From an uncultured virus (IMG/VR IMGVR_UViG_3300020048_000046) (lineage: Duplodnaviria > Heunggongvirae > Uroviricota > Caudoviricetes): a stretch of 59,139 nt of DNA. A program made the translations under genes and the position numbers. Location: IMG/VR virus record IMGVR_UViG_3300020048_000046; one strand, 5' to 3'. Under the pieces are notes generated by a model. That model was not told where the DNA came from. It saw nothing but the letters and a program-made list of their open reading frames with translations, and did no database searches. This document shows, piece by piece, positions 25,238-26,089 of this stretch. Position 1 is the stretch's first letter, and each line of letters begins with the position of its first letter.

Positions 25238-26089
25238 ATGACTAACGAAGAATTTAAAAAATGGTTTTTGGATAAATATAATTCATGTTATTATGTAAAG
25301 TACGAAAAATATCCAGAAAGCATTTTCATGTATTATGATAAGAATTTTGCTAGACAAAAAAAATTATCAAGAGTTTTAGATCAAGAATTAATTTATCCAA
25401 CAAAAGTAGACGGTATTTGTTTATTTGAACAGGATTATAAAAATAATAGATTATGGTGTAAATATAAAGAAATTTGGTCATTTTTTGAAGAAAATTCTAC
25501 ATATAACTACATAAAAATTAGAGACTTGATTAAAGGTTGGTTGGAAGAAGCCTCAAAATTAGAGGTATTAACACCAAAATGGAGCACTGAATTTTTTAGT
25601 TCAAAGTTGGAAGAAGCCTCAAAATTAGAGGTATTAACACCTATTGGTAGCGTCAAACTCAGCTGTAATACGTTGGAAGAAGCCTCAAAATTAGAGGTAT
25701 TAACACCTGAGGGAATTGTCGTTGAATACAAATCATTGTTGGAAGAAGCCTCAAAATTAGAGGTATTAACACCCGGCAATGGCGTTGATTGCTACAATGC
25801 TATGTTGGAAGAAGCCTCAAAATTAGAGGTATTAACACCTGAAAGCTTTGGGATAGGGAAAACAATACAGTTGGAAGAAGCCTCAAAATTAGAGGTATTA
25901 ACACCTGCATATGCAAGTAGGCACAGCCAAATGTCGTTGGAAGAAGCCTCAAAACCAGAAATATTAATACCGGCAGATAAATGGATGTTTATTACCCATA
26001 AGTTGGGCGAAGCATCTAAATTAAAGGTATTTAAACCAGAACAGGTTGAAAGCGGTTGGAACTGGAGGTTGGACGAAGTATCGGAATAG
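25238..26089 (+). CDS. array-fused family member; reads through array 2
   Basis: N-domain followed by eight 22-aa units. Confidence 0.85.

Follow-up and report, generated by a model that had tools for sequence, protein, structure and literature searches.

Type VI-B-like CRISPR Arrays That Appear to Be Read as Protein in a Multigene Family of Putative Giant Phages

Results

Array Genes in the Window

The subject of this study is a CRISPR-like array that lies inside a gene of an uncultured lake virus of the Caudoviricetes (IMG/VR record IMGVR_UViG_3300020048_000046). The window is the whole stretch of 59,139 nucleotides (nt) that was analyzed. The array in question, array 2 (25540-26037, plus strand), consists of eight repeats of 36 nt, of which six are identical and the two distal ones degenerate, separated by seven spacers of 30 nt. 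The open reading frame (ORF) at 25238..26089, paralogue F, begins with a domain of ~100 residues, the N-domain (25238..25539, plus strand; defined from the ORF, a family profile, and an AlphaFold2 (AF2) model), and runs from this domain straight through the array. Its stop codon falls within another decayed repeat beyond array 2. An initial annotation of the window had described the array leader, the ~40 nt ahead of repeat 1, as protein-coding. The coding part of this proposal was borne out, as the 302 nt upstream of array 2 are N-domain codons with no AT-rich non-coding stretch. Since no non-coding gap is present, any leader function would lie in codons.

The window holds three further arrays. 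Array 1 (24793-25158) has six repeats with one to four changes in each and a spacer GC content of 47%; it is carried by paralogue E (24491..25171, plus strand). Array 4 (52395-52760), with six repeats of which three to four are identical, is carried by paralogue H (52093..52782, plus strand). Array 3 (34127-34625) has eight repeats, six of them identical, and its gene (33702..34671, plus strand) has a gp30.3-like N terminus (PF08010, E 1.6e-20). In this gene the gp30.3-like part is followed by a masked run (33944-33994), by the last ~42 N-domain codons only, and then by the array. The repeat is 36 nt long throughout, and of the 24 spacers in the four arrays 23 measure 30 nt and one 31 nt. The 31-nt spacer (34361-34391) shifts the frame of array 3, and the ORF goes on as 34393..34671. 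The four spacers past this frame shift remain open in the repeat frame. The array ORFs terminate inside the last degenerate repeat or a few codons beyond it. From array to array, the repeats differ at 3-7 positions (three arrays of one phage). The Logan contigs of the best DNA run end at 24525 and restart at 25878, leaving arrays 1 and 2 unbridged.

Apparent Reading of the Arrays as Protein

No stop codon was found among the 217 spacer codons in the repeat frame. In the other five frames, stops were present at 24/240, 3/216, 7/240, 16/217, and 12/216 codons. All 24 phage spacers were open in this frame. In the equivalent frame of two real Cas13b arrays, 14 of 22 spacers were open in the Bacteroidota genome G329 and 4 of 8 in Porphyromonas gulae (together 18/30).

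Repeat units were examined in 162 proteins, consisting of 157 database proteins and five window-encoded ORFs. Complete units, 99 in total, were carried by 41 of these family proteins, and the variable part measured 10 residues in 92 of the 99, which is the length encoded by a 30-nt spacer. Within a protein, identity was 85% between constant parts and 5.7% between variable parts. The repeat encodes a 12-residue motif, L-x-[ED]-x-x-K-[LM]-x-[VI]-[LYF]-[TSI]-P, and the repeat differences between arrays coincide with the variable positions of this motif. The variable part showed no conserved residue pattern. Judged from the sequence, the whole arrays are coding and continuous with the N-domain gene. 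CRISPR array finders would call these protein genes CRISPRs.

In the AF2 model the N-domain was predicted with high confidence (predicted local distance difference test (pLDDT) score of ~97 for residues 1-100) as an alpha/beta fold with its last helix at residues 91-105. The array-encoded tail had pLDDT values <50 and is predicted to be disordered. A profile search with the N-domain yielded 745 cluster representatives at E ≤ 1e-3 and 286 at E ≤ 1e-10. No fold match was found by Foldseek against the PDB (best E 0.78) or by VIA-align over 48,161 chains (best Z 4.2), a protein atlas search gave no usable match, and neither Pfam nor PHROGs contained a family covering the paralogues. The arrangement of domain and array occurs in a large multigene family of giant phages. 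A related record (L014, genome G003) has 18 N-domain paralogues, noted at 216-222 kb and mostly in tandem, all with AT-rich tails (GC 21%; GC at third codon positions (GC3) 12%) and one to three decayed motif units.

Similarity to Cas13b Arrays

A pattern built only from the letters of the window repeats was run over 185,579 species genomes and matched in one place. This was a 10-repeat array of 36-nt repeats and 30-nt spacers in P. gulae, directly downstream of Cas13b (NF038190, E 1.8e-245) and Csx28. The agreement of 21/36 positions with the P. gulae repeat was forced by the search pattern and hence is not independent. Cas13b itself served as bait for an independent set: 3 of the 401 Bacteroidota genomes sampled carried it, and the arrays of the other two genomes, G329 and G133, were then compared. 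In register, the array 2 repeat matched the Cas13b-associated repeats at 23/36 (G329) and 21/36 (G133) positions; the three VI-B repeats agree among themselves at 23-29/36. Among 200,000 shuffles of the array 2 repeat, 0 and 14 reached these two scores. The phage coding strand corresponds to the sense strand of the VI-B arrays, but the score of the opposite strand was lower by only 1-2 positions. The G329 array has its homogeneous repeats toward cas13b and its degenerate ones distally, which is the layout of the phage arrays, and the G329 spacers measure 30 nt in 22 cases, 29 nt in one, and 31 nt in one. The VI-B locus of P. gulae (genome G006, L041) has no adjoining cas1, and four Cas1 matches lie on other contigs of that genome.

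In addition to the 36-nt repeats, the 30-nt spacers with rare 29- and 31-nt exceptions, and the register-matched repeats (21-23/36), the phage arrays share with type VI-B arrays a leader upstream on the transcribed strand, degenerate distal repeats, and the absence of adjacent adaptation genes. In contrast to VI-B arrays, they are in frame with a protein domain and have only stop-free spacers, their repeat encodes a motif that a large protein family conserves, neither cas13b nor a csx gene is nearby, their hairpin is not maintained, and coding sequence takes the place of an AT-rich non-coding leader. By sequence and layout, they group with the Cas13b-type arrays. VI-B arrays without cas1 and cas2 can be filled in trans; in Flavobacterium columnare this is done by type II-C Cas1-Cas2, as the initial annotation had stated, and transcription of VI-B arrays runs from the leader into the array (both in the available text of PMC8092290). 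A search of IMG/VR for the repeat gave no match; a looser scan returned 11 loci, seven being one known array and four single chance matches. No anti-repeat copy of the kind found in trans-activating CRISPR RNAs was present on the opposite strand at up to 10 mismatches.

Spacers and Array Growth

The spacers had a GC content of 39% (44, 41, and 33% at the three codon positions), compared with 35, 27, and 14% at the three positions of the phage genes. A GC fraction of at least 0.37 was found in 16 of 24 spacers and in 6.8% of the 30-mers of the window. Decayed tails had a GC content of 21-29% and a GC3 of 12-30%; for array spacers the values were 36-47% and 33%. All spacers were dissimilar, and the longest stretch common to two of them was 9 nt. 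The repeat begins at a third codon position. In 80 of 89 units, an NNG codon was compatible with the last variable residue, and at the other nine variable positions NNG-incompatible residues made up 25-40%. Because the last residue fits NNG, the DNA boundary of the unit is not aligned with the codons.

Polarity was examined in 24 arrays with at least three units. Similarity within the first repeat pair exceeded that within the last pair in 16 arrays, fell below it in three, and equaled it in five (sign test, P = 0.004). In a related phage array (L006, 3300-3563), identical in seven IMG/VR records, spacer GC fell from 47% to 37% to 27% away from the N-domain, a series of three points only. Strain differences in spacers were all-or-none: a protein from another contig, P0001, matched paralogue H at every one of its 185 residues and lacked exactly the two N-domain-proximal units. 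In contigs of other runs the same repeats enclosed different spacers, among them a GC-rich one of 29-30 nt. Off-size spacers that break the frame occurred in array 3 (31 nt; 1/24 in the window) and in the related phage contig L001 (29 nt; 1/2), compared with 2/24 in G329. These sequence properties point to the insertion of ready-made 30-bp pieces and not to divergence in place.

The Junction between N-domain and Repeat 1

The junction codons before array 2 (25498..25539, plus strand; placed with a 38-mer consensus) form the end of the last N-domain helix. The near identity of the ~40 nt that precede repeat 1 of arrays 2, 3, and 4, noted in the initial annotation, was confirmed. The degenerate 38-mer occurred with 0 mismatches at three sites (25502-25539, 34089-34126, and 52357-52394), each abutting repeat 1 of one of these arrays, and in 0 of 100 shuffles. 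The junctions of arrays 1 and 2 differ at 8/44 nt.

Further paralogues on the plus strand have decayed arrays or none. One recognizable repeat and a decayed tail are found in 11174..11575, a decayed AT-rich tail (GC3 0.15) in 23969..24487, and two decayed units in 52864..53307; counted as decayed motif units, these three ORFs have one to three, and the diverged paralogue without an array at 23036..23422 has none. The contig L001 carries the syntenic orthologue of the paralogue at 11174, with three repeats and spacers of 30 and 29 nt. Relative to array 2, the difference in the last 44 nt and in the other 258 nt of the N-domain was 0.045 and 0.151 for array 4, 0.18 and 0.147 for array 1, 0.23 and 0.14 for the L001 orthologue, 0.34 and 0.18 for 11174, 0.39 and 0.20 for 52864, and 0.50 and 0.24 for 23969. 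In the decayed paralogues, junction divergence was thus about 2-fold that of the rest of the domain (0.34-0.50 versus 0.18-0.24), and the association of diverged junctions with decayed arrays holds as annotated. This correlation of junction integrity with array length is drawn from ~8 paralogues that are not independent of one another, and overall divergence confounds it. The junction is among the less conserved parts of the N-domain family consensus; therefore, relaxed constraint after decay, or the age of the paralogues, explains the pattern equally well as the loss of an integration site.

Excess synonymous conservation in the last ~14 codons, which would be expected of a signal in the DNA, was absent. 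In arrays 1, 2, and 4, seven synonymous differences were counted in 34 comparisons of codons for the same residue, about as elsewhere, and the expectation given codon usage and overall divergence was 7.5 (P = 0.53). Among arrays 2-4, 6/8 junction differences are synonymous and the region encodes a helix; therefore, the constraint seen is on the protein. The conserved ~40 nt encode the last N-domain helix, and their likeness in arrays 2-4 stems from protein constraint together with recent common ancestry. Two observations are weak hints of a signal at the DNA level. Codons 73-92 (25454-25513) of arrays 1, 2, and 4 had 0 synonymous differences where 6.0 were expected (P = 0.003; a window chosen post hoc in three sequences), although non-synonymous differences do occur there, and all four paralogues retain the rare codons AAC and TAC. 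The GTTG directly before the repeat is constant in eight paralogues while the residue switches between Gly, Ser, and Cys (GGT, AGT, and TGT). Compared by eye with the 80 nt that precede the P. gulae and G329 arrays, the phage junction showed no likeness to either, nor did these two resemble each other.

Gene Content and Size of the Phage

The window has a GC content of 25% and densely packed genes of phage type. Profile matches included a ClpP-like head protease, ClpB- and FtsH-like ATPases, a Dam-type methylase, and ART-PolyVal domains; a sorting tail of the type IX secretion system gave a weak match among the window proteins. Relatives of the N-domain family sit on IMG/VR contigs of 181-256 kb. 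Five related records were searched, one of them 61 kb long; they scored 9-36% complete, with 30-36% for the relatives of 214-256 kb. These values point to a phage genome of several hundred kb. Phage genomes >634 kb have been predicted to infect Bacteroidetes (PMC7162821, available text), and the carriers are probably giant phages infecting Bacteroidota.

Some other features of the window were recorded. The ClpB-like ATPase (phrog_4871; region 4830-8473) is found in two ORFs, 4830..6140 and 7349..8476, which match successive parts of the profile, with an unrelated ORF of 381 aa between the two halves. On the minus strand, three genes in a row (37173-40606) each encode an ART-PolyVal ADP-ribosyltransferase domain (E 1e-20 to 3e-26). 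Also on the minus strand, 57315-59139 contains arrays of an 81-nt (27-residue) repeat inside large ORFs, one of which encodes a PKD domain and strongly matches phrog_9915. In contrast to the 66-nt arrays, these sequences encode ordinary repeat proteins.

Discussion

Rather probably, the feature studied here is the boundary at which a folded N-domain of ~100 residues meets the first unit of a VI-B-like CRISPR array, with the array translated as a continuation of the domain and units added to it in trans. A Cas1-Cas2-type integrase acting in trans, with the host as its likely source, would add units at the N-domain end, now or until recently. It would copy repeat 1 and bring in a captured 30-bp piece of DNA, after which selection on the ORF would retain only in-frame, stop-free units. 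The function of a leader, if there is one, would sit in coding DNA with no synonymous constraint visible at the junction. That the integrase would be a host Cas1-Cas2 we infer by analogy with VI-B arrays that are filled in trans.

A number of results weigh against this reading. No Cas family was found among the 90 ORFs of the window, the longest of which encodes 627 aa, and neither Cas1 nor Cas13b was found in the five related phage fragments, each about one third of a genome. A pattern covering all repeat variants of the window had 0 matches in the 185,579 species genomes, so that no host array was recovered, and no protospacer was found for any spacer, either within the window or among 50,697 phage records. 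Rfam searched with 24400-26200 at E ≤ 10 gave three chance rows and no CRISPR repeat family. The 5-bp stem of the array 2 repeat is broken in arrays 1, 3, and 4 and in L001, with no compensating changes. The two units missing from P0001 could reflect deletion or assembly collapse. A single integrase would need to tolerate repeats that differ at 3-7 positions among three arrays, and 36-nt blocks could be kept identical by short-tract gene conversion without an integrase.

The initial annotation had gone further and assigned the last ~14 codons of the N-domain a second role as a DNA-level anchoring site for host Cas1-Cas2, the loss of which would halt array growth. The arrays do abut these codons without a gap, so that a leader must be coding, and the junction is common to the long, homogeneous arrays 2, 3, and 4 and absent from the decayed ones. 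Array 3 keeps only the last ~42 codons of the N-domain and still has six identical repeats, and the constant GTTG and the silent patch at codons 73-92 are in line with such a site. Against these points stand the ordinary number of synonymous differences in the 14 codons, the variation at positions -9 and -12 within the long arrays, the confidently modeled helix that the region encodes, the confounding of the correlation with paralogue age, and the unlikeness of the VI-B leaders to the junction and to each other. What stood of the proposal is that any leader must be coding; its specific placement in these codons we regard as unlikely, and the host Cas1-Cas2 that it calls for is itself taken from analogy. 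It is similarly improbable that the genes are ordinary tandem-repeat proteins in which gene conversion keeps the motif, the 10-residue linkers drift, and unequal crossing-over alters the number of units, with the CRISPR likeness being a relic or convergent and no capture taking place. The motif is conserved in a protein-like manner across the 745 family members, including the 18 paralogues with AT-rich tails in one phage, a predicted disordered tail needs no particular linker sequence, and the missing cas genes and protospacers and the unconserved hairpin also speak for it. However, linkers drifting in a genome of 25% GC should be as AT-rich as the decayed tails, and the spacers are not (36-47% GC). 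Unequal crossing-over copies whole units, yet no duplicated spacer was seen. Repeat 1 is no worse than the inner repeats, with decay confined to the distal end, the unit boundary lies inside codons, 29- and 31-nt spacers are about as frequent as in real arrays, and the repeat resembles Cas13b repeats far beyond chance.

A somewhat more doubtful explanation is that the arrays act as RNA, with a host Cas13b binding or processing the mRNA as a decoy or as a guide supply chosen by the phage, and with translation as an incidental or second use. The coding strand is the CRISPR RNA-sense strand of VI-B arrays, the window holds ~26 repeats per 59 kb, and earlier work describes both phage RNAs that mimic repeats and cas-less arrays in phages (PMC11656645, PMC7162821, and PMC10651486, in the text available of each). 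An RNA function would not account for 24/24 open spacers versus 60% in real arrays, for the codon-wise conservation of the motif, or for a stem that changes without compensation. The 3' end of the repeat reads ACACC, compared with ACAAC or ACAGC in three VI-B repeats, and the change creates the conserved proline. The lack of a spacer target in the window and the phage records also speaks against guide use.

Two candidates were discarded. Hypermutation copied from a template, as in diversity-generating retroelements, was dropped, since the variable parts differ everywhere and all-or-none between strains, and no reverse transcriptase was found among the 90 ORFs. A peptide-precursor system with the neighboring ATP-grasp gene (22176..23054, R2K_2) was set aside; R2K_2 was found in 1/5 related records, there 55 kb from the paralogue cluster.

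We favor the arrays as protein-coding relatives of VI-B arrays filled in trans, and known systems share some of their properties. Compact arrays without Cas1, Cas2, and Cas4 in huge phages (PMC7162821) likewise have a giant-phage carrier, are short (6-8 repeats here), and show no adaptation genes; in the available text of that report they are described as guide-RNA loci, with no mention of translation or of fusion to a protein domain. Virus-borne mini-arrays, single repeat units, and RNA anti-CRISPRs (PMC11656645 and PMC10651486, available text) also place CRISPR-type repeats in viruses without cas genes. Mini-arrays have repeats identical to those of the host and spacers that target related viruses, according to the portion available of PMC11656645, and here no identical host repeat or target was found; the window arrays differ further in being apparently translated. 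Repeats in genes termed false-CRISPRs, which are defined by missing spacer diversity, share the repeat-spacer appearance inside a coding gene and the absence of companion cas genes (PMC5294841, available text). In contrast to these, the window spacers are mutually unrelated and the repeat resembles true Cas13b repeats.

Multi-core peptide precursors, such as those of cyanobactins, carry hypervariable cassettes between conserved flanks. Precursors of this type resemble the array genes in having a conserved N-terminal part followed by alternating constant and hypervariable cassettes, with constant parts that are identical in DNA. They differ in that the variable part in the window follows no residue pattern and that no conserved link to a modifying enzyme is present.

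The known role of CRISPR arrays is to store guide RNAs in non-coding DNA. In the literature searched, supplements aside, no description of CRISPR-type arrays read as protein was found. It is conceivable, although we place it below an even chance, that CRISPR adaptation writes protein in these genes, with a host Cas1-Cas2 acting in trans to place captured 30-bp DNA and a copied 36-bp repeat at the 3' end of the domain-coding part: each acquisition would add a constant 12-residue motif and a new 10-residue peptide, coding sequence would serve as leader, and selection on the ORF would filter frame and stops. Here, a protein family of giant phages with hundreds of members keeps as ORFs arrays that correspond to the Cas13b type in length, sequence family, strand, and polarity. 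If they are relics, the arrays are nonetheless the trace of an old event in which a phage gene captured a CRISPR array. Should an integrase still be adding units, they would be a case of a leader forced to work from within codons, and the family would represent a natural means of converting captured DNA into new stretches of peptide.

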